The notes: generated by a model from the letters alone, not told the origin. Positions 1-59,306 are shown, counted from the stretch's first letter. The stretch is 64,000 bases of DNA from a bacterium (GCA_023230585.1 JALNXB010000001.1:69847-133846); one strand, 5' to 3'. Numbers and translations are program-made.

Positions 1-8
1 ATTAGACT

Positions 9-80
9 CCCCCTTATATGTCATTCCGGATTTATTCGGAATCTCGTTTTTATTACTTCATAGATAACAAAATGAGGCGT
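9..80. repeat. Partial copy of dispersed modular intergenic repeat (module 'tgtcattccggatttattcggaatc' hairpin + 'gataacaaaatgagg')
   Basis: Same motifs recur at ~10512, 17496, 56581, 43150(rc) in this window. Confidence 0.5.
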
Positions 81-90
81 TCAGGATGGA

Positions 91-1218
91 GTGGTGGGCA
101 AGGATAAAGCCATCAAGGATGAAGGTGTAAGAAAAAAATATTTGACAAGAAAATCAAATAGTTATAACCTTAAGATTGTGAAACAAATCACAATGATAAT
201 GGAAACCTTATATATTACCAAGCAAGACTGGGAAGGTTTTATTAAGGGCAAAACTGTCGATAAAACAATCTTTGCTCCTTTTGATGATAGGGGGTCCTTA
301 TTTTACAAGAGAGTTTTTGCTACTAATTGTCAGGATATTGTTTATAATAGAGCAAGACCTATTGAGCCCTTAAAACTATTTTTGTTACCTTTCAAAGAAA
401 GAGTTTTTCCTTCAATTGACGCCATATCCGAAATTATCGTTATGGGGGCTACCTCATGCGATATAAAGGGGTTACAAATTCTTGATAAAGTTTTTTTAGA
501 AGAAGATTATAAAGACCCTAACTACTCATACCGCCGTGATAATACTCTAATAATAAGTTTTGATTGCCTATCTCCGTACTCGTCCTGTTTTTGTGAACTT
601 GTAGGTGTACATCCCTACCCCGAGAATGGTTTTGATTTAAATCTTTCTCTTTGTCAGGATGGGTTTTTAATAGATGTAACTACAGATAAAGGGGCTGCGT
701 TTATTGGGAATGACCAGAAGTTTTTTCAATCTTCAGGTGAACAGGTAGGAATGAGGAAAGAGCAGAGAAAAAGAGTAACAGAACAACTTAAAGAAAGCAA
801 TAGAAGGTTCGATTTTTCAAAATTAGATAACCTGAAAGGTGCATATCAGAGCGAAATCTGGCAAACTCCTAAAGATGTTGAGAATTGTGTTCAATGCGGT
901 AGTTGTACCAACAATTGTCCAACCTGTGTATCTTTTTTGCTTGAAGATGTAGGTACCTCAGAAAATATAAAAAAAAATAAGGTTTGGGATAGTTGTCTTT
1001 TCCCCGGATACGCTAAAATGGCTGCAGGTGCTTCGCCTCGACCGTCTTTGTATGATAGGTATGCTAATAGATTGTTATGTAAATACTGGTATATGGTTGA
1101 AAATTTTGGGGTTAAGGGGTGCACTGGGTGTGGAAGATGTATATCAGGATGTATAGGGAAGATAGATAAAAGGTCGGTCATAACTGAGGTGTTAAGAAAC
1201 GAAAAGGTAAATATTTGA
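91..1218 (+). CDS. FeS subunit with two CxxCxxCxxxCP-type motifs, HydB/AsrA-like (sulfhydrogenase beta / anaerobic sulfite reductase A family); start codon uncertain (GTG 91 or ATG 196)
   Basis: Motifs CVQCGSCTNNCPTC and GCTGCGRCISGC in translation; positioned immediately upstream of FAD/NAD subunit as in hydBG/asrAB pairs. Confidence 0.5.
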   Translation: MVGKDKAIKDEGVRKKYLTRKSNSYNLKIVKQITMIMETLYITKQDWEGFIKGKTVDKTIFAPFDDRGSLFYKRVFATNCQDIVYNRARPIEPLKLFLLPFKERVFPSIDAISEIIVMGATSCDIKGLQILDKVFLEEDYKDPNYSYRRDNTLIISFDCLSPYSSCFCELVGVHPYPENGFDLNLSLCQDGFLIDVTTDKGAAFIGNDQKFFQSSGEQVGMRKEQRKRVTEQLKESNRRFDFSKLDNLKGAYQSEIWQTPKDVENCVQCGSCTNNCPTCVSFLLEDVGTSENIKKNKVWDSCLFPGYAKMAAGASPRPSLYDRYANRLLCKYWYMVENFGVKGCTGCGRCISGCIGKIDKRSVITEVLRNEKVNI

Positions 1219-2048
1219 TGAAAAAAAATATTTATGCGCCAATAAAATGTAATGTTATTGAAGTAGTGACTGAATCTCCTAACATTGTGACAGTTAAACT
1301 AAAACCCTTAGAAGAGTTTTCTTTTCTTGCAGGACAGTTTGCCTCTTTAACTGTTTTTGGAATTGGTGAAGCACCTTTTACTCCATCATCTTCTCCTTAT
1401 GATAAAGACAAAATAGAGTTTACTGTAATGAAAACAGGAAGAGTGACAGACGCAATACATAATCTGCAAGTAGGAGATATTGTCGGAGTGAGAGGTCCTT
1501 ATGGTAAACCTTACCCATTAGATTTTTACCAAGGTAAAGAGATTCTTCTTGTTGGAGGCGGTGTTGGGTTGGCACCTTTAAGGGCTCTCTTTTTTGCGTT
1601 AATGGAGACGGTTGACAACTATAAGAAGATTATCTTTTGTTGTGGTGCGAAGACTCCAGAGGACTATATTTATAAAGATAAAATTCTGGACGAGTGGCAC
1701 AATTTTTGTGATAGGTTTCCTTTAAGTTTCAGGATAACGGTTGATAGGAAATGCCCTGGTTGGAAGTATGGTGAAGGGGTGGTAACAGAAACTCTTGATG
1801 GGTTGGCTCTTGATATTTCTAACTCTGTTGCGGTTGTTTGTGGACCTCCTATAATGATGAAATTTACTACATTGAAACTTCTTGAGATAGGTTATACAGA
1901 TGCTCAGATATATCTTTCTATGGAAAGGAAGATGTATTGTGGGGTAGGTCAATGTCGACATTGCCTTATTGGTGACCTTTTTGTGTGTAAAGATGGACCG
2001 GTGTTTACTTATGCTCAGTTGAAAGATAAACCTAATATATGGGTCTAA
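1215..2048 (+). CDS. FAD/NAD(P)-binding oxidoreductase subunit with C-terminal 2Fe-2S motif (HydG/AsrB/PyrK-like electron transfer subunit)
   Basis: Gly-rich LLVGGGVGLAPL nucleotide-binding motif; C-terminal CGVGQCRHCLIGDLFVC cluster motif typical of PyrK/HydG family; 4-bp overlap with upstream gene. Confidence 0.65.
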   Translation: MMKKNIYAPIKCNVIEVVTESPNIVTVKLKPLEEFSFLAGQFASLTVFGIGEAPFTPSSSPYDKDKIEFTVMKTGRVTDAIHNLQVGDIVGVRGPYGKPYPLDFYQGKEILLVGGGVGLAPLRALFFALMETVDNYKKIIFCCGAKTPEDYIYKDKILDEWHNFCDRFPLSFRITVDRKCPGWKYGEGVVTETLDGLALDISNSVAVVCGPPIMMKFTTLKLLEIGYTDAQIYLSMERKMYCGVGQCRHCLIGDLFVCKDGPVFTYAQLKDKPNIWV

Positions 2049-9494: not shown

Positions 9495-10021
9495 TACTAA
9501 ATATACCTCTCTTATCTTCTCTGTTGGTTCTTATGGCTGTTGGTTCTGTTATTGCAATATCAGCAAAAAGTCTTACCTCTTCTGTTGTGGCAATGGGTAC
9601 AGCAGGCCTTATTCTGAGTATCCTCTTTCTTATTCTTGGAGCGCCTGATATTGCTATAGTACAGGTCTTTGTGGAGATTGTAGCGTTAATCGTTCTATTA
9701 TCAATTATTTCACGAGAATCTTCTGCGGATATGTCTTCGTCGGGTATGTACGCAGGGTTTGTGCTACTTATTTTTAGTATATTTCTTTTTACTTTTATGC
9801 TTAACTCTAAACTGTTTTTAAGACCTTTTGGGGAACCGCTTATGACTATGGGCTCGGGGTACCTAAAATCTTCGGTAGAAACATTAAAAGGAGCGGATGT
9901 TGTCAACTCTATAGTACTTGATTTAAGAGGTTATGATACACTTGGTGAAGCTACAATTATTTTTACTGCTATATTGGGGGTATTGGCGATGTTGCGGCTA
10001 AAAGGGAGGATTGATGGATAA
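9446..10021 (+). CDS. MrpA C-terminal-domain-like / MbhD-E-like small membrane subunit
   Basis: Hydrophobic 191 aa; follows MrpA-like gene; ends ...LKGRIDG immediately before repeat insertion. Confidence 0.4.
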   Translation: MDFCRDYTINGGYKKMILNIPLLSSLLVLMAVGSVIAISAKSLTSSVVAMGTAGLILSILFLILGAPDIAIVQVFVEIVALIVLLSIISRESSADMSSSGMYAGFVLLIFSIFLFTFMLNSKLFLRPFGEPLMTMGSGYLKSSVETLKGADVVNSIVLDLRGYDTLGEATIIFTAILGVLAMLRLKGRIDG

Positions 10022-10026
10022 AGGGA
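9999..10026. repeat. 28-bp direct repeat (left copy) 'taaaagggaggattgatggataaaggga'
   Basis: Perfect identity with 10785-10812 by eye. Confidence 0.8.
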
Positions 10027-10784
10027 CAAAAAAGTATGTGGTGTCTACTCACTCTGGAACTACGGTGCATACACCTTCTACACAACAATCGGGCACTCTG
10101 AGAACTTACCCTTCTGCATAAAAGGCATCTCCGAAGGGTTTAACAGGCTCAGTGTAGTAGAACAAAAGGCTTGAACCTTTTGTTAACAGCCCGATTCTTG
10201 CTTGAGTTGTAGTAGCACCTCGTAATTCGTTCATAGACACATACTTTTTTAACGAAAAGAAAAACAAAGGCAATGATAAAAGCATAAAAGAAAAGCGTAT
10301 GGGGTGTTTACTCACTCTGGTACTACGGTGCATACACCTTTCCTTTTTTGCCTTCTACCCTTAGGGGATGTTTGGGGTAGTAAGTCCCCAAGAGTTTGCA
10401 AAGAGGTTAATGGGATGAGGTTTATCCGCCGAAGCTTGCATTTTAGCGCAGGTGGAGGGGTAGTTAGCAACTTAACCAAAAACGAAAGACGTAATGATAA
10501 AAGATGAGATTGCCCCCTGCATGTCATTCCGGACTTGATCCGGAATCTCGTTTTTACCGCTTCTGTTAAGTGGGTTAGGTTAGAGATCCTGAAACAAGTT
10601 CAGGATAACAAAATGTGGGAGTAGGGGAACAAAAGGCTTGAACCTTTTGTTAACAGCCCCCCATTCCGCCTTTTGTAGTTAGTCTTGCGAGTTTTACCCG
10701 CCGAAGCCTTGGCGTAGGAGGGGCTTCGTAACGTGGCAATCTCGCCGAAGGCGGAAAAGGAATGGGAAGGAATAATAGTATGGT
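10027..10784. mobile_element. 758-bp composite block of dispersed repeat modules inserted between two operon genes (non-coding, MITE-like)
   Basis: Contains duplicated modules 'ggtgtttactcactctggtactacggtgcatacacc' (x2), hairpin 'caaaaggcttgaaccttttgttaacagc' (x2), 'gtcattccggacttgatccggaatctcgtttt', 'ccccattccgccttttgtagtt...', 'gcggaaaaggaatg'; all recur elsewhere in window; flanked by 28-bp direct repeats. Confidence 0.6.
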
Positions 10785-10812
10785 TAAAAGGGAGGATTGA
10801 TGGATAAAGGGA
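10785..10812. repeat. 28-bp direct repeat (right copy)
   Basis: Identical to 9999-10026. Confidence 0.8.
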
Positions 10813-11267
10813 TGAGCGAGATAGTTAAGGGTATTTCAAAAATAGTGTTCCCATTTATTATACTTTTTGGCATTGCTCTTGTTTTATATGGGCATATTAA
10901 TCCAGGGGGCGGATTTTCAGGTGGGGCTGTTTTGGCTGGAGGGTTTGTACTGCTTCTGCTTGCTTTTGGGAAAGATTATGTGTTTAAAGTTTTCCCTCCA
11001 AAAATTGCTCGGCTGATTGATAGTTTAGGGGCTTTAGGGTTTTTGTGTATTGCTGTTTTAGGGTTTACAGGAGGCCACTTCTTTTATAATTTCCTCAATA
11101 AAGGCCGGCTCTTCCATTTATGGAGTGGTGGTACGATGGTATTTGCTAATATTGCTATAGGTATGAAAATTTGTTCAGCTCTTTTTGTTGGCATTTCTGT
11201 TCTGTCTATGGCTCGCCTTGAAAAGAAAGAGAATGGGCCTATATATAGGCAGAGCGGGGAGGAATAA
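10800..11267 (+). CDS. MrpB-like antiporter subunit
   Basis: PGGGFSGGAVLAGG motif typical of MrpB/MnhB; ORF track starts at TTG 10797, ATG at 10800. Confidence 0.55.
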   Translation: MDKGMSEIVKGISKIVFPFIILFGIALVLYGHINPGGGFSGGAVLAGGFVLLLLAFGKDYVFKVFPPKIARLIDSLGALGFLCIAVLGFTGGHFFYNFLNKGRLFHLWSGGTMVFANIAIGMKICSALFVGISVLSMARLEKKENGPIYRQSGEE

Positions 11268-11617
11268 TGGTTATATATCTTCTGGTTGCTCTTATTTTCT
11301 TTATAGGGTTATATGGTATTGTTGCTAAAAAGAATATCATAAAAATTATTATAGGGGCTAACATTGTGGGTTATGCAGTTAATCTGTTGTTTATAGTGAT
11401 GGGGTATCAATGGGGCGGGATGGCTCCGGTGTTAACTGAAAAGACCAAACCAGATGAATTCTATAAGTTAGCCGTTGACCCTTTACCTCAGGCACTTGTT
11501 TTAACATCAATAGTTATTGACCTTGCTTTCCTTGCTTTTTTGTCTGCACTTGCTATCCGTCTTTATGAAAAGTATGAAACCTTTGATATAGAAAAGATGC
11601 GGAGGTTAAAAGGATGA
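11267..11617 (+). CDS. MrpC/NuoK-like subunit
   Basis: 116 aa, three predicted TM helices, taATG overlap, position in Mrp order. Confidence 0.55.
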   Translation: MVIYLLVALIFFIGLYGIVAKKNIIKIIIGANIVGYAVNLLFIVMGYQWGGMAPVLTEKTKPDEFYKLAVDPLPQALVLTSIVIDLAFLAFLSALAIRLYEKYETFDIEKMRRLKG

Positions 11618-13119
11618 ACCTTATTGTTATGCCGGTGGTTATTTATTTAGGTTCTGCTTTTGTTATACCGTTGTTATTTAGGAAGAACGAGGAGTTGGCA
11701 GGGAAATTTACCTGTATATGCACGTTTCTTGCGTTTGTTATATCTATCCTTATAGGAATCAATGTTTTTTCTCAAGGTAGATTTATATCTTTTGCAGGCG
11801 GTTGGGAAAATCCCGTAGGTATAGCTTTAATGGTTGACCCTTTATCTGCGTTATTTCTTATAGTATGCAATTTTATAACATTCTTCATACTACTATATTC
11901 AGATACCTATATGAAAAAATATACAGGTAGAATATATTTTAACTCTCTCTTTATGTTAATGCTTGCAGGTATGAACGGTGTACTTATAAGTATGGATATA
12001 TGGAACATTTTTGTCTTTTTTGAAATAGCTTCAATATCGTCTTTTATACTTGTTGCTTTTGGTTTGAAGGCAGAAGAGTTGGAAGCATCATTAAAATATA
12101 CTATTATGGGGTTCTTGGCATCAACTATGATACTTTTTGGCATGGCTATGATATACGGGCTTACTGGGACCTTAAACCTGCCTGATATTGCATTTGCTTT
12201 ATCTAAATTACCTCCTTCTCATTTATGGTTCACTGTTGCTCTGCTTTTGTCTGGGTATATATTAAAGATGGCTCTTGTACCTTTCCATACTTGGCTACCA
12301 GACGCTCATTCTATGGCACCTGCACCAGTGTCGGCTATATTGTCGAGCCTTTTTATAAAAATTATAGGGTTTTACCTTGTGATACGTGTTTCTTTGAACC
12401 TTTTTGGGGATATATACCAGATAAAGACAGCGCTTATTGTGTTGGGAGTGGTGTCTATGATACTTGGCGGTATTATGGCTTATGGACAACAAAATATCAA
12501 ACGGTTGTTTGCCTATTCTACTATCAGTCAGATAGGGTATTGTGCGATTGGAATAGGTATTGGAGGTTACTTGGGATACCTTGGGGCTATTATGCATTTT
12601 ATTGGGCACGCTTTTTCTAAATCACTACTATTTTTAGATATAGGCGCAATTGAATATATGACAGGCACCACTGATTCTAATGATTTGGAAGGAATCAATG
12701 AGCAGATGCCTTTTACAACCTTATTTTCAAATATGGGAATGTTCGGAATATCAGGTATTCCTCCTTTAGGTAATTTTTGGAGTAAACTGATTATTATACT
12801 TGCAGCTGTAAAAGCAGGATACTTTGGGGTTGCTCTTTTATCAGTTTTTGTTGCTGTCTTAACTCTCGGGTATTTTCTTAAACTATTAAGGAACGTCTAC
12901 TACAACAAACCTAAAACCAAAGAAGAAAAAAAAGAAGCTCCTTTGGGGTTGTTGGTGCCAATGGCAACCTTATCGTTTATGGTGCTATTTACAGGGGTTT
13001 TTCTGATACCTTCTATAAGAAAAACTGTTTTAGATAAAACCGTTGGAGTGATGGAAAACTTTTCGTATAAAAGTTTACATATTTCGGAAACCGATGAAAG
13101 TATATTGTTAGAAGAGTAA
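11614..13119 (+). CDS. MrpD/NuoN-like antiporter subunit
   Basis: 501 aa with FHTWLPDAHSMAPAPVS motif. Confidence 0.7.
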   Translation: MNLIVMPVVIYLGSAFVIPLLFRKNEELAGKFTCICTFLAFVISILIGINVFSQGRFISFAGGWENPVGIALMVDPLSALFLIVCNFITFFILLYSDTYMKKYTGRIYFNSLFMLMLAGMNGVLISMDIWNIFVFFEIASISSFILVAFGLKAEELEASLKYTIMGFLASTMILFGMAMIYGLTGTLNLPDIAFALSKLPPSHLWFTVALLLSGYILKMALVPFHTWLPDAHSMAPAPVSAILSSLFIKIIGFYLVIRVSLNLFGDIYQIKTALIVLGVVSMILGGIMAYGQQNIKRLFAYSTISQIGYCAIGIGIGGYLGYLGAIMHFIGHAFSKSLLFLDIGAIEYMTGTTDSNDLEGINEQMPFTTLFSNMGMFGISGIPPLGNFWSKLIIILAAVKAGYFGVALLSVFVAVLTLGYFLKLLRNVYYNKPKTKEEKKEAPLGLLVPMATLSFMVLFTGVFLIPSIRKTVLDKTVGVMENFSYKSLHISETDESILLEE

Positions 13120-13131
13120 AAGGAAAAAGAA

Positions 13132-13617
13132 ATGAGATACTTTTTTATGTTTATAGTTTTGTATATTATCTGGCTAATGGTAACTTGCAATATGGAGGTT
13201 GCCAATTTTTATGCTGGGGCAATCGTTGCTTTAATTGTTACAGCGTTATTTGGGAAAGAATTTCCTTACCACCCTAAACATACTTTTCAAATAAAGAGAT
13301 ACTTTGCATTTATTAAATTTTTAGGTGTCTTTTTTGTGCAGGTTGTACATGCTAACTTCATAATGGCTTATAGGGTTTTAAGTCCAAACTTACCAATTAA
13401 ACCGGGGATAGTAGAGATACCTCTCTATCTTAAATCCCCTCTGGGTAGAGTAATTCTTGCTAACGCTATCACTCTTGCGCCGGGCACTTTTACTATGGAC
13501 ATCACAAGTGATACACTTATATTACACTGGATATACGTACAGACAGAAGACCCACATAAAGCAGAAGAAATTATATGCGGTAGGTTACAAAGAATTCTTA
13601 AGGAGGTATTTGAATGA
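13132..13617 (+). CDS. MrpE-like subunit
   Basis: 161 aa, N-terminal hydrophobic; position in MrpA-G order. Confidence 0.45.
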   Translation: MRYFFMFIVLYIIWLMVTCNMEVANFYAGAIVALIVTALFGKEFPYHPKHTFQIKRYFAFIKFLGVFFVQVVHANFIMAYRVLSPNLPIKPGIVEIPLYLKSPLGRVILANAITLAPGTFTMDITSDTLILHWIYVQTEDPHKAEEIICGRLQRILKEVFE

Positions 13618-13868
13618 TTGCCTTATTAGTTTTTTTAACAGTGTGTGTTGCTTTGTGTGTCTACAGAATTTTTGTTGGACCTACTTCTGCAGACAGGATG
13701 GTAGGGATAGATATTCTTGGTATAATAGTTGTGATATTTTGTGTTCTATTGGCGTTATACACAGGTTTTGATTATTATATGAATATAGGTATCGCTTGGT
13801 CAATTATTGGTTTTGTTAGTACAATCACTTTTGCAAAGTTTCTTGAAGGGAGGCATTTAGATGAGTGA
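13614..13868 (+). CDS. MrpF-like subunit
   Basis: 84 aa hydrophobic, overlapping start/stop with neighbours. Confidence 0.45.
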   Translation: MIALLVFLTVCVALCVYRIFVGPTSADRMVGIDILGIIVVIFCVLLALYTGFDYYMNIGIAWSIIGFVSTITFAKFLEGRHLDE

Positions 13869-14181
13869 AGTTATTGGGCAAATATTTCTTGTTGTAGGGT
13901 TATGTTTTACATTTTTTGGATGTGTAGGGTTGGTAAGAATGCCTGACGTATACTGCAGGTTGCAGGCGGCAACAAAATGTGTTACTCTGGGAACAGGTAG
14001 TGTTTTGATAGGGGCTCTTATAATAACAGGGTTTACTGGTATAGGAATAAAATCTTTGGTATGTTTTATATTTCTTTTTTTAAACTCACCAACGGCTGCA
14101 CACGCTCTTGCTAAATCAGCTAAAGCTGCTGGAGTGCCTGTCTGGAAAAAAACTGAACCTGATAAAAACAAAAATCTCTAA
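13861..14181 (+). CDS. MrpG-like subunit
   Basis: 106 aa, N-terminal TM helices; end of Mrp module. Confidence 0.5.
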   Translation: MSEVIGQIFLVVGLCFTFFGCVGLVRMPDVYCRLQAATKCVTLGTGSVLIGALIITGFTGIGIKSLVCFIFLFLNSPTAAHALAKSAKAAGVPVWKKTEPDKNKNL

Positions 14182-14224
14182 CAACCTTTCTTAAAGGTCT
14201 TTAGCAACATTGTAAAAAAATAAA

Positions 14225-14494
14225 ATGCATGAACTTGTATTGATTTCAAATCTTTTAAAAATTCTTAACAAAATAAAAGAAGACGATAGGAATATATATT
14301 CTTTTCTGGCAATACATATTACTGTAAACCCATATAGTTGTATAGATGAGGAAAATCTTAATTTTATGTTTCGCTCTGTAGTCGGAAAAGAAGAGATATA
14401 TAAAGATGCTAAAATATGTGTAACAAGAGGGGCTAACCCTGCTGATAGAGAGTTTATACTTGATAATGTGGAGGTAGAGGTTTATGAAGAATAA
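14225..14494 (+). CDS. hypA: HypA-like hydrogenase nickel-insertion protein, N-terminal Ni-binding domain only (no Zn-finger CxxC...CxxC)
   Basis: Starts MHEL (conserved MHE Ni site) and resembles HypA N-domain; only two Cys in 89 aa; overlaps hypB start. Confidence 0.45.
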   Translation: MHELVLISNLLKILNKIKEDDRNIYSFLAIHITVNPYSCIDEENLNFMFRSVVGKEEIYKDAKICVTRGANPADREFILDNVEVEVYEE

Positions 14495-15602
14495 GGTTAA
14501 AACAATTAAGGTAGGAGCAAGCATATTGAAAGAAAATGATAAAATATCTGAAGAGAATAGGTTATTATTTGAAAAAAACAATGTGTGCTGTATAAATGTT
14601 ATGGGGTCTCCCGGTTCGGGTAAAACATCTCTACTTGAGAAGACAATACCTAAACTTAAATTAAAAAATATAAAACCTGGGGTTATAGAGGGAGATATAG
14701 AAGGAACGTTAGATGGTGAACGGCTTTTAAAATATGGTATACCTGTGGTGCAGATAAACACAGGGGGAGCGTGTCATCTGGATGCCAATATGGTAAAGAA
14801 AGGCCTTGAGAACCTCAATTTGAATGAGATAGATATCCTATTTATTGAAAATGTTGGCAATCTTGTATGCCCTGCTGCGTTTACTCTCGGCGAAAGTTAC
14901 AACGTTATTATTTCAAGTTGCCCAGAAGGAGAGGAAAAACCTTTAAAATATCCTTTGATGTTTAATATTTCTAATATATGCCTCCTTAATAAAATGGACT
15001 TGTCTGAACATTTGGATTTTAATACCAAACAATTTAAAGAGTACCTATTTAAGGTTGCGCCAGATACTAAACTTATACCGCTATCTTCAAAAACAGGAGA
15101 TGGTTTTGAAGAATGGTTAGATTTTCTTTACTTGTCTGCCCCTGAAAATAAAAAAGAACGTATAGTGGTGGTAGGTTTGGGGGATAGGATGAAAGGGGAC
15201 GATGCAGCAGGATGCGAAATAGCTGAACAACTTCATAAAGAGGATATCTCAGAGAATGTAAAAATAATTAATGCTGAAAACGCTATAGAAAACTATATTG
15301 GCGTGATAAAAGGATTTAAGCCAGATAGAATATATTTTGTTGACGCTGTTGACTTTAGTGGAACTCCAGGAGAAGTAAGACTTATGGAGGCAGGTTCTCT
15401 GGTAAGCAACACCTCTTCAACACATACTTTAGCTTTGCCGTTGATAATAGAAAATATTAAAGCAGAAACTTCTGCAAAATGTACTATCGTTGGAGTTCAA
15501 CCTAAAAAGATATTGTTTTCACAGAAGATTTCAAATGAGGTTAGGGAAGGTATTATGAATGCAGTTAAAATGTTGAGGGAAATATTATGGAAAAAGAGAT
15601 AG
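14484..15602 (+). CDS. hypB: Fusion of HypB nickel-GTPase and hydrogenase maturation endopeptidase (HycI/HybD-like)
   Basis: P-loop GSPGSGKTSLLEKT, CHLDANMV, ENVGNLVCPAAF (HypB) followed in same frame by VVVGLGDRMKGDDAAGCEIAEQL (HycI/HybD N-terminal signature). Confidence 0.75.
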   Translation: MKNKVKTIKVGASILKENDKISEENRLLFEKNNVCCINVMGSPGSGKTSLLEKTIPKLKLKNIKPGVIEGDIEGTLDGERLLKYGIPVVQINTGGACHLDANMVKKGLENLNLNEIDILFIENVGNLVCPAAFTLGESYNVIISSCPEGEEKPLKYPLMFNISNICLLNKMDLSEHLDFNTKQFKEYLFKVAPDTKLIPLSSKTGDGFEEWLDFLYLSAPENKKERIVVVGLGDRMKGDDAAGCEIAEQLHKEDISENVKIINAENAIENYIGVIKGFKPDRIYFVDAVDFSGTPGEVRLMEAGSLVSNTSSTHTLALPLIIENIKAETSAKCTIVGVQPKKILFSQKISNEVREGIMNAVKMLREILWKKR

Positions 15603-15952
15603 TTATGAAGTATGCAAATAAAGAAATCAAAATTTTAATGAAAGATAGCCGTTTAGCAAAAGCAATATGTGAGAAATTACCGTTTAAGGTGAATGTAAAT
15701 GTTTGGGGTAGAGAAATCTATTTTGAGATACCTGTAAAGTCCAGTATAACAGACTCTGTAATAGAACTTGAAGAAGGAGATGTGGCTTACTGGCCAGATG
15801 GAAGGTGTCTATGCTTTTTTTTCGGACCCACCCCAGCAAGCACAGGAACAAAACCAAAAGCTGCCGGTTATGTTGAGGTGGTTGGAAGGGTTACTTCTGA
15901 TTTGAAAGAACTTGAAAAGGTGAAATCAGGAGAAGAGGTGGTAATTGAATGA
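15587..15952 (+). CDS. Hypothetical protein, possibly cyclophilin-like (TM1367-type) fold
   Basis: Motif AYWPDGRCLCFFFGPTP recalled from cyclophilin-like DUF family; weak. Confidence 0.3.
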   Translation: MEKEIVMKYANKEIKILMKDSRLAKAICEKLPFKVNVNVWGREIYFEIPVKSSITDSVIELEEGDVAYWPDGRCLCFFFGPTPASTGTKPKAAGYVEVVGRVTSDLKELEKVKSGEEVVIE

Positions 15953-15965
15953 AGACGTAAAAAAC

Positions 15966-16145
15966 ATAAAAGACCCCCTCACCTTGCATCCTCTCCCCCA
16001 AAAGGAGAGGCAAATAAGGAAAGATTGTCATTCTGGGGTTTATCCCGAGTACCCTCGAGGGGCTTAACAGGCTCATAGTAGTAGAACAAAAGGCTTAAAC
16101 CTTTTGTTAACAGCCTCCCCATTCCGTCTTTTTTAGTTGACTTTC
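15966..16145. repeat. Dispersed modular intergenic repeat copy
   Basis: Modules 'gaccccctcaccttg...ctctccccc' (rc of module at 56497/17578), 'gtcattctggggtttatcccgagtaccctcgagggg', 'caaaaggcttaaaccttttgttaacagc', 'ccccattccgtctttt'. Confidence 0.6.
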
Positions 16146-16174
16146 TACTTATTTGGTAGTATAATACAAAAAAG

Positions 16175-17467: not shown

Positions 17468-17487
17468 AAATGTACCTCTTTTGTGAA

Positions 17488-17835
17488 GGGATTCCCCCTT
17501 ATATGTCATTCCGGATTTATCCCTCGGGGATACTTGGAACAAGCCGCCGAAAGCGGAAAAGGAATGTACCTTCTTTGCCCTCTAACCCTTGGGGGAGAGG
17601 GATCAAGGGTGAGGGGGTCTTTTGCTTTACGCTTTTGTTTTTATACGTTACTCCCCCCATTCCGTCTTTTGTAGTTAATCTTGCGAGTTTTACCCGCCGA
17701 AGGCGGAAAAGGAATGCACCTTCTCTTTGCCTTCTACCCTTGGAGTGTTTGGAGTAGTAGTCCCCAAAGGGTTGCAGAGAGTTTAATGGGATGAGGTTTA
17801 TCCCTCGAGGTACTCGGTAGACAAGCCTTTACAAT
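17488..17835. repeat. Dispersed modular intergenic repeat copy (composite)
   Basis: Modules 'ccccttatatgtcattccggatttatccc', 'gcggaaaaggaatg' (x2), 'ccctctaacccttgggggagagggatcaagggtgaggggg', 'ccccattccgtcttttgtagttaatcttgcgagttttacccgccgaagg', 'ttctacccttgg...gtttaatgggatgaggtttatccctcgagg'. Confidence 0.65.
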
Positions 17836-17865
17836 GACAAACAAGGCGCAAGGAATGAAACGTTA

Positions 17866-21682: not shown

Positions 21683-21710
21683 TATGTGCTTCTCCTTAAC
21701 TATTATAAAA

Positions 21711-22013
21711 TTATTCTTTCATACCTGTTGCCGTTCTTATCAGGTCTTCTACTATCTGGTATCCTTTACCTATATTAGATGTAAGACTTGGTAAAGGAAG
21801 TAGTTGTTTACGCATAACATATTTAGAAAGAAGGTCTCTGTCAAAGACTTCTTCAGTTATAAAAATTATAGAATAGTCTGAAAAACTAATATTTTTAATA
21901 ATTTTGACAGCTTCTTCAACTGTTGTTGCAGGGAAAATTTCTGCACCAAAAATTTTAAAAAAACCTACCGATGTTTTATCGCCTATAAATCCTATTTTTT
22001 TATTTTCTTCCAT
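21711..22013 (-). CDS. atpF: V-type ATP synthase subunit F
   Basis: 100 aa, IGFIGDKTSVGFF...IIFITE pattern matching NtpG/F subunits; immediately upstream of atpA. Confidence 0.6.
   Translation of the reverse strand: MEENKKIGFIGDKTSVGFFKIFGAEIFPATTVEEAVKIIKNISFSDYSIIFITEEVFDRDLLSKYVMRKQLLPLPSLTSNIGKGYQIVEDLIRTATGMKE
21923..21961. repeat. 39-bp direct repeat copy A (inside atpF coding sequence)
   Basis: 'ttgttgcagggaaaatttctgcaccaaaaattttaaaaa' identical to 30243-30281. Confidence 0.8.
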
Positions 22014-22116
22014 TTTTTTCTAATTATAATGTAAATTGTTTATAAACTAAAATTTGATTGCAAAGATACGTTATTAAATATACAATAAAATCGAATAACT
22101 TACAAGGGGAAAAGCA

Positions 22117-22465: not shown

Positions 22466-22499
22466 GGCTTTTTTAAAATCAGTTACTTTTTGGAAGGTC

Positions 22500-22640: not shown

Positions 22641-22714
22641 ATTGTAGAGAATAGGACATTAAAAGGCGAAAGGGAATAATTTGTTATAAATATTTATGAG
22701 ACGAAATACTTTCA

Positions 22715-43127: not shown

Positions 43128-43262
43128 TTACCCCGAATGCTTTCCGAGGGTATTAGGGATAAATCCAGAATGACATAAAAGGGGCAACCTCATCCCATTA
43201 ACCTCTCTCAAACCCGTAAAAGCAGATTACACGCCCTGGACGGTGTTCGCTGCGGGCTCACC
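43128..43262. repeat. Dispersed modular intergenic repeat copy (inverted orientation)
   Basis: rc of 'gtcattctggatttatccc...ccctcgg', rc of 'gggatgaggtt', plus 'ctggacggtgttcgctg'. Confidence 0.55.
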
Positions 43263-50417: not shown

Positions 50418-53400
50418 TTACTGTATAAGGACTGTAAGTTCAGGAGAATCAGAAGACCGATTGTCCCAATTATCAACAGCAACAACTCTGTAGTAGTAGG
50501 TATTGCCTGCCTCAAGCACAGAATCTAAAAATTCTTGTGTGGAGGTACTTCCAACAAGAGTTGCTGAAGTAGTTTTTAAATTAGGTGTTTTAGAACGGTA
50601 AACATTGTAGTACCTTACACCTTGCGGTACCTTTACTTCATTCCATACAAGTTTAACATAAGGTGGTCTTACTCTATACCCTCCTTGTTGTAATGGTTCT
50701 CCCTGCACAAGAGTTGTTACTGCTTTCAATCCTGACGGTGCCCCGTTGAGAAGTGAAGGTGAGTTGCTCTTGCTGGTTGGCGTAAATCTTAGGTCATTGG
50801 TGACCATTATGTTATCCAGGGCAATGCTTGAGTCTGACGTTTCAAAACTCACCTCATATTCACCTTTTGCAAGATTAATGTTACCAGTATCAATACCTAC
50901 CCACTTCCACCTAAATTCAGAAACATCTATTTTACCTACCTGTTTCCCGTTCACCTTAACTGTAAAACTTCCTTTGCCAATTTCCTCTTTTTCTGGCCAA
51001 CCTGTAGTAGAACTTTCACATTCAAACCTGCTCATACCTCGCACCCGTGCCATCAGTTTTGTAGCCCCTTTGTAAGGAATTTGTATTTTTAGAGATACGC
51101 TACCTTTTAACAACCTTTCGCTTAATCGTTCTTTATACAGTAGGCTTGGGTCTGTTATAGCAACTCCATAAGAATTGCTTGCTTCTTTAGGTTCAAAAAA
51201 AGGTACCATAGGTTTTACTATTTTACCGGTTTCTGCTTCATAAAAATGTCTGTAACGATTATTCTTTCCAAGTTGAACCTCATTAGAAAACATTCTGCTC
51301 TCCAAACCAGAGTATTCCACAGATGTCATCACATAAAACCCCTTCTTTGATAGATTGTAGTTGTTCTCAGTAATTATCTGGTTGTTAACTTTCTTGTAGT
51401 TTTTACCACTTTCATTTGAACGGTAAAGGTTATATCCTTCTATTTCTGCGTGAAAACGAGGTTGTTCCCATAAGAGTTTGCCTTTGACGATTTTAAGATT
51501 TGATGGTGGCATAGGGTATCTTACAACAGCTATATACGTGTCTCCTATTTCGTATTCTGGTCGTTCAGCGGTAAGCATAGAAGATGCGTACCCTACTTTT
51601 GTGTAATCAGGGCTTGGGTTTGGCATAGACCATATTGTTTTTGCTTGCAACCTGCTATCACCAGTAGGGGTTCCTGATTTGCGTAGATTGGCTGCTCTTT
51701 TTGCTCGTTCTTCGCGGTCATAGTAGTTTGACATTGCTACTGCCCAGAAAGTTTCGTGTTCAAGATCTATCATAACAATTGGGACTGTTGGAACATTTTT
51801 TGACCATATAAGAGCAAATTCTATATCTCTCCTAAATTCGTGAGGCCAAGATATGTGGTCAAGGCCAGGGTAGTTGCCAAGAAATTTTACTTCACCGTTA
51901 TAAGGGTTGTTTACAGTAATTGTGCCAAAAAAGTTGCTATGCATACCTAAAGCGTTCATATGTACCAGAGTGTTGTCTTCAAGCAGAAGAGGAGTATTAT
52001 CTCCTGAACGGGGAAGACCCCCTGCAAGGTTCCACCAGGTATCGCCTTTCCATATAGGTTTATCTCCTGTCAAGGGTATATGTGTAATATTAGGTGTGGG
52101 AATTACTTGTATAAGTCCTCGTTTATCAGTAAGAGAAAGAGGTAGAGCCCATACTTGATAAGGGTTATCGTCTGTAAGAAATTTGTTACGGTTAATCTCA
52201 AAAAGAAAGTATCTTATACCGTTTTTATCAACCGCATTTGCCCAGTTATTCCCTGATTTACCCCAAACGGAATTCATTGCTAAATAATCACGGTTTTTTT
52301 CTCCTGCCGGATAAACAATGTCTTGTTCAGGGTTTTTGGAGATACTTTTGACTTTGAAAGAACGGAAATTATTACCTTCAATATCAGATAAAGCAAACTC
52401 TTTTCTATCTTCTGATTGCCATACAAGAATTTCGTGCGTAATATATTTTAGACGAGGTCCTCTACCTCCGTCTTCTGAAGGTCGTTTGATAATTTGCCAA
52501 CCTTCTTTTTGGGGTAGATTTATAATATGGGTCTTGCCTGTCTCAAGGTTCAAAAATGTTTGAGTAGAAAAACTTCTTGATACATTTATCCATTCAGAAG
52601 GGTCGCTTCCTTCGGGAAGCCGTTTTTCTTCCCATGGAAATAGCCACGGAATCCTGTTTGCCCAACTTTTTGGTTTAGCAGACCTATGGCGGAAAGTGCC
52701 GTCGGTTCTTATGATATCGCCAGGGGTTCTTTTGCCTGCAAAAAAATATTTACCTTCATTACTGAAATCTTGAGAACCTGAGTATGAAAGATTGACTTCC
52801 CCACCTTGAGTCATAAGCCATAACTCTGTACCAATAAAAGAGTCTTTAAAAATAACCTTTCCAGGTCTATCTGGGTGGGATATTTTTTTTAGAGTATCAA
52901 GACCGTGGATTATGCTGGTTGATGTTTTTGAAGTCCAATCATCAGGTAACACAGTATTTCCGAGTCGTACTATTTCTATTTCTTTAACTTGAACTACAGC
53001 TCTATGTTTAGCAGGGTCTCCATAAGCCCGTGCAATACCTGTGTAATACTTTTTCTTCTCTGTTCCTTCTACATAAAAAGGAAGAATAATTTCTCGAAAT
53101 TCCTCAGATATCCCTATCGGCATAACAAATATATCACCAGTAGCAACAGGTTGTTTGTCTACAAAAAGTTTTGCGGAATGAGAATTTGTTTTTGCTACTG
53201 CTCGCAAAATGTAATGGCCGGGAGTTAGTTCTACCTGTTTTGTGATGCCTTGCCAACTACAAAGTAAAGCAAAAGATGCTATACCTGTCTGGTCGTTATA
53301 TGAAAAATCGGTATACACACCTCCTCTCGACCCTCCCCAACCGGTTTTGGATGTTATGTCAAACTTTATTCGAAATGCTTCATTCTTTCCGTTAGTTGAA

Positions 53401-53483
53401 CTGTCAGCAGAAAGGTTCTGACATAAAACACAGAAGATTGTAAATAAGGTTAGCATATAAATAAACTTGTGAAAAAGTCTCAT
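50418..53483 (-). CDS. Large secreted protein (signal peptide) with fibronectin type III-like domains
   Basis: N-terminal hydrophobic leader; Fn3-like repeats (…YNLYRS.., …YYNVYRS…TYYYRVVAVD). Confidence 0.45.
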   Translation of the reverse strand: MRLFHKFIYMLTLFTIFCVLCQNLSADSSTNGKNEAFRIKFDITSKTGWGGSRGGVYTDFSYNDQTGIASFALLCSWQGITKQVELTPGHYILRAVAKTNSHSAKLFVDKQPVATGDIFVMPIGISEEFREIILPFYVEGTEKKKYYTGIARAYGDPAKHRAVVQVKEIEIVRLGNTVLPDDWTSKTSTSIIHGLDTLKKISHPDRPGKVIFKDSFIGTELWLMTQGGEVNLSYSGSQDFSNEGKYFFAGKRTPGDIIRTDGTFRHRSAKPKSWANRIPWLFPWEEKRLPEGSDPSEWINVSRSFSTQTFLNLETGKTHIINLPQKEGWQIIKRPSEDGGRGPRLKYITHEILVWQSEDRKEFALSDIEGNNFRSFKVKSISKNPEQDIVYPAGEKNRDYLAMNSVWGKSGNNWANAVDKNGIRYFLFEINRNKFLTDDNPYQVWALPLSLTDKRGLIQVIPTPNITHIPLTGDKPIWKGDTWWNLAGGLPRSGDNTPLLLEDNTLVHMNALGMHSNFFGTITVNNPYNGEVKFLGNYPGLDHISWPHEFRRDIEFALIWSKNVPTVPIVMIDLEHETFWAVAMSNYYDREERAKRAANLRKSGTPTGDSRLQAKTIWSMPNPSPDYTKVGYASSMLTAERPEYEIGDTYIAVVRYPMPPSNLKIVKGKLLWEQPRFHAEIEGYNLYRSNESGKNYKKVNNQIITENNYNLSKKGFYVMTSVEYSGLESRMFSNEVQLGKNNRYRHFYEAETGKIVKPMVPFFEPKEASNSYGVAITDPSLLYKERLSERLLKGSVSLKIQIPYKGATKLMARVRGMSRFECESSTTGWPEKEEIGKGSFTVKVNGKQVGKIDVSEFRWKWVGIDTGNINLAKGEYEVSFETSDSSIALDNIMVTNDLRFTPTSKSNSPSLLNGAPSGLKAVTTLVQGEPLQQGGYRVRPPYVKLVWNEVKVPQGVRYYNVYRSKTPNLKTTSATLVGSTSTQEFLDSVLEAGNTYYYRVVAVDNWDNRSSDSPELTVLIQ

Positions 53484-53507
53484 ATTGTCCCCCTTTTTAG
53501 TAAAATA

Positions 53508-54602
53508 TTAAATAAACTCGCTAAGAACTCTGTTTGCCAGTAAAATTCCTTGAGAAGTTAATCTATACCTTGTGCCTGTCTCTTCTAAAAGATGGTTTTG
53601 AATAAGTTTATTCACCTGTTTTTCATATCCTATAAAATTTTTTTTATCAACCCCTTTTGACATACGAAGCCCTAAAAATATGGTCTCTTCTTTAATTGAA
53701 AGGGTAGAACCTTCTGTATATTCAACAATAGATTTTGAAGGGGTTGCAAGATAATCTTTAAGAGAAGTGGTGTTTGCCCATCTTTTACCGTTAAAATGGG
53801 AATGGGCAGCAACCCCTACACCTATATAGTTGCCGTTTTCCCAATAGTTTACATTATGTTTACATTCCATTCCTATGGTTGCGAAATTAGAAATTTCGTA
53901 TCTGTAAAACTTCTGTTTTAAGAGGAATTCAACTGCATAAATATACATATCAGCATCTTGGTCTTCTGAAGGTAGATTGAGGTTCCCTTTTTCTTTTTCT
54001 TCCCAGAATGGTGTTCCTTCTTCTATCTGTAAATTATAAATGGAATAATGCTGTAATTCCATAGATATGGCTTTCTGTAAATCTTGTTTCCATAACTCTA
54101 TTGTTTGTCCTGGTAGAGCAAACATAAGGTCTATACTGATATTTTTAAAGTCGGCTTGCCTACATTCTTTATAAGTTTTCAAGGTATCTTCACTTGAATG
54201 AATTCTTCCAAGTTTAGTTAAAATATTATTATTAAAAGTTTGAACTCCCAATGATATACGGTTTATACCCAACTGTTTGAAGTCTTTCAATTTTGTGATA
54301 TCTGCAGTTGCAGGGTTCACCTCTATACTTATTTCTATATTAGGTGAAAGTAGGGGGGATATTTTGTTTATAGATGAAAAAATTTTTTCAATATGTAAAG
54401 GAGAAAGTAGGCTTGGAGTGCCTCCACCGATGTATATGGTAGAAATACCTTTTGAAAGAATATCTTCTCTTATTTTTAGTTCTGTGCAGAGAGCCTCTGA
54501 GTATTGGTTAAAAACTTGGTTTTCATACCCCGTGTATGATACAAAATCGCAGTAGGCACACTTTTTTACACAAAAAGGTATGTGTATATAAAGGCCTGTC
54601 AT
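53508..54602 (-). CDS. hemW: Radical SAM heme chaperone HemW (oxygen-independent coproporphyrinogen-III oxidase-like)
   Basis: CVKKCAYCDF CxxxCxxC motif; downstream of lepA. Confidence 0.8.
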   Translation of the reverse strand: MTGLYIHIPFCVKKCAYCDFVSYTGYENQVFNQYSEALCTELKIREDILSKGISTIYIGGGTPSLLSPLHIEKIFSSINKISPLLSPNIEISIEVNPATADITKLKDFKQLGINRISLGVQTFNNNILTKLGRIHSSEDTLKTYKECRQADFKNISIDLMFALPGQTIELWKQDLQKAISMELQHYSIYNLQIEEGTPFWEEKEKGNLNLPSEDQDADMYIYAVEFLLKQKFYRYEISNFATIGMECKHNVNYWENGNYIGVGVAAHSHFNGKRWANTTSLKDYLATPSKSIVEYTEGSTLSIKEETIFLGLRMSKGVDKKNFIGYEKQVNKLIQNHLLEETGTRYRLTSQGILLANRVLSEFI

Positions 54603-54612
54603 AGTTTTTTTA

Positions 54613-56394
54613 TTATCTATTTATTTTAAGAACGGCAAGAAACACCTCTTGAGGAATATCTACGCTACCAATTCTTTTCATTCTGCTTTTACCTTCTTTT
54701 TGTCTTTCGAGCAGTTTTCTTTTTCTTGAAATGTCTCCACCATAACATTTTTGTAGAACATCTTTACGGACAGGCGGTATGGTTTCTCTTGCTACAACTT
54801 TACTTCCTATAACTGCTTGAATAGGGATTTCAAACTGGTGGCGCGGGATTAAAGTGCGTAGTTTGGCAGCAAGGGCTCGCCCTACATACTGGGCTTGCTC
54901 TCTTGATACAATAGAACTTAAAGCATCCACTTGCTCATAATTTAAAAGTATATCCATCCTAACAGCGTTAGATACTCTGTAACCTATAATTTCGTAATCC
55001 ATCGAAGCATAGCCTCTTGTGCAAGCTTTTAGCATATCGTGAAAATCAACAATAATTCGAGATAGAGCCATTTCAACAACAAGCATTACCCTTGTAGGGT
55101 CAAGATATTCTGTAGAAATAAAATCACCATTCTTCTCATTTACAAGTTGCATTATTGCTCCAGTATATTCGGATGGAGAAAGAATAGTTAAACGGCAGTA
55201 AGGTTCTTCAATGGTCTCTATTTCTGTTGTAGGAGGTAGCGATGATGGGTTATCAACCATTTTAATGCTCTTATTTTTTAATGTAACTCTGTATACCACA
55301 CTTGGAGCTGTGGCAATAATGTTTAGATTAAACTCTGTTTCCATCCGTTCTTGAACAATTTCAAGGTGTAAAAGTCCAAGAAAACCGCAACGGAAACCAA
55401 AACCAAGAGCAGAAGATGTTTCCTGTTCGTAGTGGAAAGAAGCGTCATTTAATTGTAATTTACCCATAGCGTCTTTAAGCATATCAAAGTCTTGCCCATC
55501 TATAGGGTAGAACCCACAAAACACCATAGGTTTCATACGTTTATATCCAGGCAAAGCTTCTTTTGCAGGGTGCACATCATCAGTAATAGTATCTCCCACC
55601 CTACAATCTCTAACATCTTTAATCCCTGCAATGACATACCCTACCTCTCCAGAAGATATTGTTTGGGAGGGGATAGGTCCTAACCTTAGATACCCTGCTT
55701 CTTGAACCTCAAATTTTCTACCTGTGCTCATCATCCTTATAAACATACCTTTCTTTATTTCCCCATTAAAAACTCTTACTCGAGCAATAACGCCTCTAAA
55801 AGAATCATAATGAGAATCAAAGATGAGGGCTTGCAAACAAGAATCTTTTTCTATGGTAGGAGATGGAACCCGATCTATGATAGCACTAAGAATCTCCTCC
55901 ACTCCTTCGCCTGTTTTAGCTGATACAAGCAGAACCTCTTCAGACGGTATCCCAAAAACCTTTTTGAACTCTTCTTTTATTCTATCTGGGTCGGCAGCTG
56001 GTAGGTCTATCTTGTTTATGACAGGAATAATAACAAGGTTGTTTTCTACTGCTAAATAAGCGTTAGCAAGCGTTTGAGCTTCGATACCTTGGGTTGCGTC
56101 CACAAGCAAAATTGCACCTTCACAGGCAGCAAGAGAACGAGAAACTTCGTAAGCAAAGTCAACATGACCAGGAGTATCTATAAGGTTTAGTATATAACCT
56201 TTATACTCCATCCTAACGGCTTGTGCCTTGATAGTGATACCTCTCTCTCTTTCAATATCCATTGTATCCAGAACCTGTTCTTTCATCTTCCTCTGCTCAA
56301 CGGTTCCGGTGTAGGTTAGAAGCCTATCTGCAAGTGTTGATTTGCCGTGGTCTATATGGGCTATAATAGAAAAATTTTTAATTTGTTTACTCAT
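54613..56394 (-). CDS. lepA: Elongation factor 4 (LepA)
   Basis: G1 [10 protein letters not shown]3 DTPGH, NKID G4 motifs; 593 aa. Confidence 0.9.
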
Positions 56395-56462
56395 AACTTA
56401 CTATTATACCATAAAAAGTAAGTATTCGGTAAATATAGTTATATTTTTACTTAGAATTAGTG

Positions 56463-56725
56463 TAAAAAAGTATGTGATGTCTATTCTCTCTCTTTGCCCT
56501 CTACCCATAGGGGAGAGGGACCAAGGGTGAGGGGGGCTTTTACGTTTTGTCTTTATTGTTCCGTCTCCCGTTTTTTGTTAGGGTGCCCCTTTTTGTCATT
56601 CCGGACTTGAGCCGGAATCTCGTTTTTACTACCGCTGTATAGAGGATGACAAAATGGGGCGTAAAGCAAAAGAACAGGTGAAGCAATTCCCTCGGAGGTA
56701 CTCGGGATAAACCTCCAATAAGAAC
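56463..56725. repeat. Dispersed modular intergenic repeat copy (composite)
   Basis: 'aaaaaagtatgtgatgtcta' (cf. 10030), 'ccctctacccataggggagagggaccaagggtgagggg', 'gtcattccggacttgagccggaatctcgtttt', 'gatgacaaaatgggg', rc 'ccctcggaggtactcgggataaacc'. Confidence 0.65.
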
Positions 56726-56808
56726 AATAAATAATACACATAAATTTGAAATAAAAGGGGAATGATTGTATCATAATTGAAATATTTATAAAAAAAGAGG
56801 AGAGCAAA

Positions 56809-59305: not shown

Positions 59306-59306
59306 A

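Follow-up and report, generated by a model that had tools for sequence, protein, structure and literature searches.

The intergenic regions of an uncultured bacterium related to the Margulisbacteria carry a population of short repeats, which we analyzed in a 64,000-nucleotide stretch of its DNA (GCA_023230585.1, JALNXB010000001.1:69847-133846; hereafter "the window," with positions counted from its first letter). Our results demonstrate that this population is real, dense, intergenic, and recently amplified. Its commonest member is a head-to-head dimer of the CGTC-tagged repetitive extragenic palindromic (REP) elements, and the population as a whole probably consists of lineage-specific, nonautonomous, REP-like DNA modules that form stem-loops and are combined into co-oriented mosaics between genes. 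A sequence-only reading of the window had described a family of modules at eight loci, and its letters for the modules are kept here.

RESULTS

The repeat islands are genuine and intergenic

All eight loci carry the module strings quoted in the sequence-only reading. When the window was compared with itself by short-word BLAST, 28 repeat pairs were obtained, the lowest E-value being 2e-17. About 22 of these link the listed intergenic gaps, and the rest are a copy of a 39-nt coding fragment, a single palindrome, and coding repeats of paralogous or internal origin. The head of module A (TGTCATTCYGGAYTT) occurs 5 times in the window, versus 0.00 expected from shuffled sequences, and the core of module E twice, versus 0 expected. 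The family of eight loci is real, but those at 22500-22640 and 30295-30404 are single or low copy and have only 13- to 25-nt motifs in common with the others. Likewise, the strings described as modules exist, but they are actually pieces of longer units (C-x1-B, C-x1-B-x2, and the A doublet).

A scan of metagenome contigs for module B yielded 46 loci (412 kb) from only two metagenomes, 44 of the 46 being from one. The matches lie mostly at contig ends, and the repeats are approximately 92% identical to the copies in the window. Window and metagenome DNA together constitute a lineage sample of 476 kb, which harbors 60 copies of module B, 52 of A1 and 37 of A2 (the two hairpins of module A), 49 of C, and 34 of G, along with the rarer F (26), D (16), P (10), and E (6). 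In this sample, 6.8% of all bases are repeated at least three times, repeated bases account for about 35% of intergenic DNA, and 96% of repeat bases fall between genes, densities that are inflated because the metagenome loci were selected for containing module B.

Artefacts of assembly or binning, in the form of chimeric joins or collapsed repeats, would be in line with the frequent ending of contigs inside islands and with the fact that the left junction of one island, located in an Mbh/Mrp operon (9999-10060), is found in the window's own assembly only. However, two ENA contigs, one corresponding to window positions 10061-28944 at 99.99% and the other to 51613-59394 at 100%, carry five of the islands, related copies are found at the 46 loci from two other metagenomes, and the genes on either side of the Mbh island follow the usual Mrp/Mbh order. 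Three further contigs from the same organism stop inside an island or at its edge, as is expected for high-copy repeats. The artefact explanation, to which we assign next to no probability, is refuted.

Module A matches the CGTC-tagged REP dimer

In the published definition of CGTC-tagged REPs (Di Nocera, De Gregorio & Rocco 2013, BMC Genomics 14:522; PMC3733652), one end of the palindrome bears an unpaired tag, which is CGTC or, in many cases, TGTC or CCTC. They have a stem of 8 to 9 bp starting with A-T/T-A, a loop of 4 to 5 nt that falls into a few major types, and an unpaired 3-nt tail with the consensus CCA, and they occur chiefly as head-to-head dimers with the tags outside, heterodimers being found in families CGTC-2 and CGTC-3 (PMC3733652). 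No transposase is associated with them (PMC3733652).

Module A is a hairpin doublet (A1-A2) of approximately 100 nt. In the window, A1 is composed of the tag TGTC, an 8-bp stem (ATTCCGGA/TCCGGAAT), the 5-nt loop CTTGA, and the 3-nt tail CTC. TGTC directly precedes the stem in 5 of 5 window copies, and CGTC, TGTC, AGTC, and GGTC are found in the hairpins of other genomes. The A1 stem begins with AT, and among 48 distinct hairpins the first pair is A-U in all 48 and the second U-A in 41. The hairpin loops of the window are CTTGA (twice) and TTTA (once), and the tail, conserved at 3 nt, reads CTC where the published consensus is CCA. An inverted A2 lies within 140 nt of A1 in 28 of 48 A1 copies, with the tags outside and with different stems (CCGGA versus CCTGAA). 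The CGTC pair of the window spans 10522-10609 and is arranged like the hairpin pairs of other genomes.

Judged by its sequence, module A belongs to the known superfamily of CGTC-tagged REPs, two of which are paired in it head to head as a heterodimer, and it displays every defining feature except the tail consensus; the elements had already been taken for MITE/REP-type repeats in the sequence-only reading. Module A and the published elements are alike in tag, stem, loop length, presence of a 3-nt tail, head-to-head (hetero)dimers, intergenic site, and lack of an associated transposase. They differ in that the tail of module A is CTC and not CCA, that the dimers here are set within trains of other modules, and that the host is a candidate lineage related to the Margulisbacteria.

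The CGTC hairpin is distributed across many phyla

An exact-pattern scan (GTCATTCCGGA-N4-10-CGGAATCTCG) of one genome per species identified the CGTC hairpin in 106 DNA stretches from roughly 60 genomes, representing a dozen or more phyla. The hosts include Caldisericaceae, Desulfocapsa, Treponema, Leptospira, Bacteroidales, Ignavibacteriales, Holophagales, Dehalococcoidia, Nitrospira, Oscillospiraceae, Elusimicrobia, WOR-3, and many lineages of the candidate phyla radiation (CPR). As the 2013 survey listed five phyla (PMC3733652), the distribution is much wider than published: CPR/Patescibacteria, Caldisericota, Nitrospirota, Chloroflexota, Bacillota, Elusimicrobiota, Acidobacteriota, and WOR-3 all lie beyond that list. 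Most of the 106 stretches contain an inverted second hairpin 10 to 40 nt downstream, with another stem and the same flanks (for example, GAGATCCTGAAACAAGTTCAGGATGAC).

A generic version of the hairpin (GTCA, a 7-nt stem, a loop, the complementary stem, and TC) occurs 340 times in 1.27 Mb, versus 22 times in shuffled DNA. These 340 hairpins comprise approximately 30 stem types, and their most frequent loops are CTTGA (153) and CTTGT (33). Among the 48 distinct hairpins, drawn from many genomes, 7 of the 8 stem pairs display changes on both sides while tag, loop, and tail stay fixed, although this count is biased because the hairpins were preselected for pairing, and 340 versus 22 is the sole unbiased figure.

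Modules B to H were not detected in any of the 106 loci of other phyla, and a scan of 2.9 million viral contigs gave no match to modules A, B, or F. In the Caldisericaceae metagenome-assembled genome (MAG) AUK232 and in Wolfebacteria genomes (L004 to L109, e.g., L026:3830-4035, L041, and L103), CGTC hairpins with several stem types are found at many gene boundaries. AUK232 has companion modules of its own beside them, such as cctttcctcgccgaaggcgagcacttgtttcag, and thus has similar mosaics. In the Desulfocapsa MAG GMC10 (L007, L009, L010, L018, L021, and L023), a CGTC homodimer is enclosed in a longer conserved element, at least some 150 nt in length and bounded by inverted repeats of its own (ctcagcc...ctgag), an arrangement indicating that the hairpin pair can be the core of larger units resembling miniature inverted-repeat transposable elements (MITEs).

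Lineage-specific modules form co-oriented mosaics

The boundaries of the modules are sharp and recur across matches. The unit C-x1-B is 165 nt in length and is represented by 27 full-length copies with a mean column identity of 95%. C-x1-B-x2 forms a 263-nt unit that is present in tandem up to 3 times (metagenome locus L151), and x3-A1-A2, B-F-(insert)-G, D, E, and P are further recurrent units. The 103 islands are drawn from at least 12 module types in differing combinations. Module orientation is mixed in only 4 of the 103, and islands lying between co-directional genes run with gene direction in 27 cases and against it in 4. Each island contains 0 to 2 CGTC hairpins, and most module junctions are without one.

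Module B is a second hairpin with a GTAG-like tag: 45 of its 57 copies have GTAG 3 nt ahead of the stem, the two intervening bases being variable, which is reminiscent of the GTAG-type REPs. Module B is found singly, head to tail with its neighbors, and its GTAG also falls inside the predicted long stem of C-x1-B. The left flanks of unit C often read AAGGGG-N immediately before AAAAAAGTATGT. Small open reading frames (ORFs) within unit C were dropped from consideration, as their start codon is not conserved.

Three relatives with 82 to 85% identical LepA lack the modules; the two checked for composition have 48 to 50% GC. One relative without modules (L156; 85% identical LepA) has a 52-bp exact direct repeat (11766-11817 and 11910-11961) directly downstream of lepA. 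The other assemblies of the same organism are identical or broken at the islands, and no gain or loss of modules at the strain level was recovered from them.

The modules are predicted to fold into stem-loops, as RNA or single-stranded DNA

Stem-loops are predicted for every unit. For C-x1-B, the consensus fold has an energy of -36 kcal/mol, and a single sequence folds at -43.6 kcal/mol versus -32.5 kcal/mol in shuffles (z, -2.9). The minimum-energy fold of A1-A2 consists of two separate hairpins and a short outer stem. Of 58 CGTC hairpins with one mismatch, 18 have G.T on the tagged strand and 16 have A.C, with mismatches clustered beside the loop. Hairpin pairing is constrained, and the folded molecule may be RNA or single-stranded DNA.

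The sequence-only reading had pointed to two structure-preserving variants in the window. That at 23-42 does give a G.T pair, but that at 56598-56618 replaces the loop-proximal A-T with an A.G mismatch and is not compensatory. The argument for selection on RNA or single-stranded DNA structure drawn from these changes is weak: the one-mismatch hairpins show no strand-specific wobble, and covariation is evident only across many genomes.

These folds raise the possibility that the modules are primarily functional RNA (3'-end stabilizers, attenuators, weak intrinsic terminators, RNase sites, or small RNAs), that selection on transcripts maintains their abundance and orientation, and that mobility is secondary. 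We consider this explanation possible but rather doubtful. The 27:4 agreement with transcription among islands between co-directional genes would suit it, as would the folding of every unit below shuffles and the CTCGTTTTT that follows the A1 hairpin, which was flagged as terminator-like; moreover, many REPs have been argued to act as RNA (PMC3733652). On the other hand, a search of Rfam 15 detected no family in any island, whether at the gathering score or at E<=5, only tRNA-Asp passing, and fold energies are equal for sense and antisense, with no excess of G.U-type wobble on one strand. A terminator placed in sense orientation midway through the Mbh/Mrp operon (10526-10555) would be detrimental, and the modules are absent from close relatives having the same genes. 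In addition, an identical 28-mer beside unrelated genes in a dozen or more phyla requires spread at the DNA level. Two other candidates were rejected: group II intron or ribozyme fragments for lack of any Rfam signal, and CRISPR or attC arrays for their different architecture.

Insertion footprints and the search for a mobilizing enzyme

Exact copies of a 28-bp direct repeat (9999-10026 and 10785-10812) lie on either side of the 758-nt island found inside the Mbh/Mrp operon. Both flanking reading frames survive, as the repeat duplicates the ribosome-binding site (RBS) together with the overlapping start and stop codons (ATGGATAA). A 14-bp analogue that includes an RBS was found at metagenome locus L148 (4230-4243 and 4683-4696). 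The sequence right inside the right 28-bp copy is weakly similar to another module. Both cases look like rare events kept by selection and not like the product of a fixed staggered cut.

The statement in the sequence-only reading that no transposase is associated with the repeats holds: neither the 40 window ORFs examined with Pfam nor the leftover ORFs examined with NCBIfam include one. The families of multicopy ORFs in the 476 kb are metabolic genes without a transposase domain. Clustering of the genes neighboring the 106 hairpin loci, in the partial genomes available, revealed no recurrent protein or recombinase; the ORFs that have hairpins on both sides are housekeeping genes, including those for RuvB, RNase III, and signal peptidase.

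The search proposed for a REP-associated tyrosine transposase (RAYT) was made with phmmer, using Escherichia coli RayT against the six-frame ORFs of 1.35 Mb, and identified no RayT-like ORF. Two weak matches were discarded, one being a MazF-like toxin and the other having no domain. E. coli RayT (L165:3638-4135) has no Pfam-A match at E<=0.01 and matches NCBIfam NF047646 at 5e-53; as Pfam does not detect RayT itself, the Pfam negatives are weak evidence against RAYTs. NF047646 was not found among the unannotated ORFs of the window.

Were the modules decayed ends or internal fragments of ordinary insertion sequences (ISs) that are intact elsewhere in the genome, the transposase might lie outside the approximately 476 kb of lineage DNA examined, and long intact copies could be missing from contigs, as assemblies break at repeats; the element at 22500-22640 does have imperfect terminal inverted repeats. 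However, no multicopy family of ORFs with a transposase domain and no parent IS with matching ends, the latter also a concern of the sequence-only reading, was found in the 476 kb. Target duplications are not regular, the modules are co-oriented and do not form inverted pairs around coding sequence, and the module A family lacks a transposase in any genome (PMC3733652). An origin as IS remnants is very unlikely.

Another explanation is that a site-specific recombinase acting at CGTC hairpins built the arrays, as proposed for dRS3 (by IS110-like Piv/Irg of filamentous phages), the modules being captured spacers. The CGTC-1 family has been equated with the dRS3 repeat of the Neisseria intergenic mosaic element (NIME) arrays (PMC3733652), and the NIME hypothesis and phage integration into dRS3 have been published (PMC1797815). 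A 39-nt fragment of a V-type ATPase gene beside one island is compatible with such capture, and the 28-bp and 14-bp native duplications look more like recombination or repair than transposition. Even so, we regard this explanation as unlikely: most junctions are away from CGTC hairpins, of which arrays hold 0 to 2; the modules recur at approximately 92 to 95% identity in dozens of places, indicating that they were copied and not captured once; the hairpin pattern is without a match in the 2.9 million viral contigs; and no recombinase recurs beside the 106 hairpin loci.

The islands of the window and their surroundings

The window is ordinary chromosome with 36% GC. It contains a membrane hydrogenase operon of the Mbh/Mrp type, hypF, genes for V-type ATPase subunits, a type I restriction system, lepA, aminoacyl-tRNA synthetase genes, and a tRNA-Asp gene. 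LepA is 100% identical to proteins on metagenome contigs only, the nearest named relatives being Margulisbacteria, Saganbacteria, and WOR-1 at 65 to 70%. The host is an uncultured 36%-GC bacterium related to the Margulisbacteria.

The islands are described below in order, on the plus strand unless stated otherwise. At the window edge, a module A unit (9-80) has TGTC at 19-22, a stem at 23-30/35-42 with one G.T pair, and the loop TTTA; its right half is degenerate and terminates in ATAACAAAATG.

The island in the Mbh/Mrp operon begins after the left copy of the 28-bp direct repeat (9999-10026), which contains the RBS and the overlapping start and stop codons, with a 165-nt C-x1-B unit (10028-10192). 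This unit comprises the C stem-loop (10028-10078), x1 (10079-10155), GTAG (10154-10157), and the B hairpin (stem, 10161-10169/10176-10184; loop, CTTGAA). Spacer x2 (10193-10296) and a second C module (10297-10340) follow, and then module D (10341-10435) and spacer x3 (10436-10512). The complete module A (10513-10618), which matches a head-to-head heterodimer of CGTC-type REPs, has A1 with TGTC at 10522-10525, a stem at 10526-10533/10539-10546, the loop CTTGA, and the tail CTC, then a 33-nt spacer, and A2 as an inverted hairpin at 10583-10609 with the stem CCTGAA and a degenerate tag. A second B hairpin opens the segment 10619-10766 (GTAG, 10621-10624; stem, 10628-10636/10643-10651) and is followed by F (10657-10708) and G (10743-10766). 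Between F and G lies an insert of 34 to 37 nt (about 10707-10742; 10707-10749 with flanks), bordered by a duplicated GCCGAAG. F-G is uninterrupted at 17653-17716, and the start of the insert (ccttggcgtagg) recurs inverted at 30298-30309. The right copy of the 28-bp direct repeat (10785-10812) contains the RBS and the start of an MnhB-like gene.

The island located 3' of a cyclophilin-like gene (15966-16145) contains an inverted E-like segment (15968-16005), P (16034-16061), a B unit (16056-16115; GTAG, 16078-16081), and, leading into a sigma70-like promoter (16137-16165), a fragment of F (16117-16138). The promoter is near consensus (TTGACT-17-TATAAT, 11 of 12 matches) and faces an AAA_14/DUF4143 ATPase gene. 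As read from the sequence, the truncated F module may supply its -35 box.

Upstream of hypF, the island at 17488-17835 has a truncated A1 (TGTC, 17504-17507) joined to a P-like segment, followed by G (17545-17566), E (17572-17652), F-G (17653-17716), and D (17726-17803). The low-copy element of approximately 140 nt at 22500-22640 has the imperfect terminal inverted repeats GTTTACAACCCGTTCAT and ATGAACGGTGTTTAC and includes an inverted P-like motif, gggataaacc. The low-copy element at 30295-30404 terminates in CTGGACGGTGTTCACTG (module H). The 39-nt fragment mentioned above, from inside the V-ATPase F-subunit gene (21923-21961), is repeated exactly in the intergenic region upstream of hsdM (30243-30281), 14 nt to the left of this element, and may be a captured or recombined fragment.

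The island at 43128-43262 is on the minus strand, co-directional with its minus-strand flanking genes, and contains a truncated A1 (43161-43175, minus strand), a D fragment (43186-43215), and an H motif (43236-43252). The island at 56463-56725, which separates lepA from a divergently oriented gene resembling those for class II aminoacyl-tRNA synthetases (tRNA-synt_2b domain), contains the 5' half of C (56464-56491), E (56491-56541), an A1 with TGTC at 56594-56597 and a stem at 56598-56605/56611-56618 that includes the A.G mismatch, its right half being truncated, and an inverted P (56689-56713).

Two further features of the window were noted. A near-perfect 27-nt palindrome (26624-26650) lies between hsdR and the gene for a type I restriction specificity subunit. 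The genes at 35814-36914 and 36907-37938 are tandem paralogues with 83% identity over 232 nt, the first having an AstE_AspA-type succinylglutamate desuccinylase/aspartoacylase domain; they represent an ordinary gene duplication with no relation to the repeats.

DISCUSSION

The repeats described here do not constitute a novel class, and by analogy their mosaics resemble the bacterial interspersed mosaic elements (BIMEs) of E. coli and the NIMEs of Neisseria. The earlier description of the repeats as noncoding elements of the MITE/REP type is supported both by the match of module A to the CGTC-tagged REPs and by the absence of a transposase nearby; recombination substrates, terminators, and small RNA genes are candidate roles that it named.

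NIMEs are composed of dRS3, a 20-bp inverted repeat (ATTCCCNNNNNNNNGGGAAT), and RS units (PMC1797815). Like the islands examined here, they are intergenic mosaics that join a short ATTCC...GGAAT palindrome from the CGTC superfamily to 50- to 150-bp repeats of many families, with variation from site to site. The two palindromes, however, have only their ATTCC/GGAAT ends in common, dRS3 being 20 bp (ATTCCC-N8-GGGAAT) and the hairpin of the window 21 bp (ATTCCGGA-N5-TCCGGAAT). NIMEs alternate dRS3 and RS regularly, whereas our arrays hold 0 to 2 CGTC hairpins and other modules with stem-loops of their own. Strict co-orientation of modules and tandem 263-nt units are seen in our arrays. Modules C, x1, D, E, F/G, and P are stem-loop segments specific to the lineage and can be likened to the RS units that NIMEs contain or to BIME accessory motifs.

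With the REP/BIME and REPIN elements of E. coli, the islands share inverted palindromic pairs and accessory motifs in mosaics, an intergenic location, and probable transcription. A REPIN forms one long hairpin, whereas A1-A2 forms two separate ones, and unlike the RAYT (TnpA-REP) system, no RAYT was found in the DNA examined here. In GTAG-1/2 REPs, as in module B with its 3 nt, GTAG is separated from the stem, but the B hairpins are single and always in the same direction as their neighbors, which is rare for GTAG REPs (PMC3733652).

The islands also resemble MITEs such as Correia/NEMIS, RUP, and Nezha in being approximately 100 to 260 nt, noncoding, high copy, foldable, and adjacent to genes. 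Such MITEs can bring promoters or terminators. Here, in contrast, we saw no target-site duplication and found no parent IS with matching ends, and modular recombination below the level of the unit is not typical of single MITE families.

We therefore favor, as the probable explanation, lineage-specific, nonautonomous, REP-like modules in co-oriented intergenic mosaics. The modules would be copied or shuffled as DNA by an enzyme that acts in trans and recognizes hairpins. Candidates are a site-specific recombinase and a RAYT-type Y1 HUH transposase, the gene for which would lie elsewhere in the genome or have been lost since. Incoming modules would attach to those already present at the foot of a stem-loop, giving rise to the sharp recurrent junctions and the head-to-tail trains. 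Selection would hold the trains in the direction of transcription, where they would be read through as parts of untranslated or intercistronic RNA, and may serve as stem-loop stabilizers or weak terminators. A bolder proposal, which we consider distinctly unlikely, is that the CGTC doublet, which is almost the same in a dozen or more phyla, tiny CPR genomes among them, and has never been seen beside a transposase, has been spread by a mechanism not described so far, involving either a conserved host enzyme that acts on hairpins of single-stranded DNA or an unrecognized hairpin-specific nuclease or recombinase, the module trains being the footprint of its orientation-specific insertion at stem-loop feet.

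A number of results weigh against the reading that we favor. No mobilizing enzyme was found here, or for the CGTC-tagged REPs surveyed previously (PMC3733652), so that transposition is only inferred. The longest strings shared by the flanks of islands are no longer than in a random-pairing control, except for the two islands with 28 and 14 bp. No empty site could be aligned precisely in the LepA relatives with approximately 49% GC, and no pair of empty and filled sites was recovered. The repeat densities come from selected loci and the covariation count from preselected hairpins, as stated above. The orientation bias may reflect replication and not transcription, the two being confounded here. 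Fold z-scores (-2 to -3) are moderately below shuffles, with the same energies for sense and antisense, and the folding and covariance analysis of C-x1-B has no power to test the lineage-specific folds because the copies are 95% identical. Finally, as G.T and A.C mismatches are equally frequent, nothing favors RNA over DNA.

Bacterial genomes are shaped by REP-type repeats, which give rise to rearrangements, influence the fate of mRNA, and cause assemblies to break. To our knowledge, no mobilizing enzyme is known for the CGTC branch of these elements. The lineage described here has a dense and recently expanded repeat population, which explains why the contigs of the host end where they do, and in which a pan-bacterial CGTC dimer is placed among lineage-specific modules with strict polarity. 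What makes the population of interest is this polarity, together with the distribution of a nearly invariant CGTC hairpin over a very wide range of phyla, a distribution that includes CPR bacteria and sharpens the question of how CGTC repeats move.

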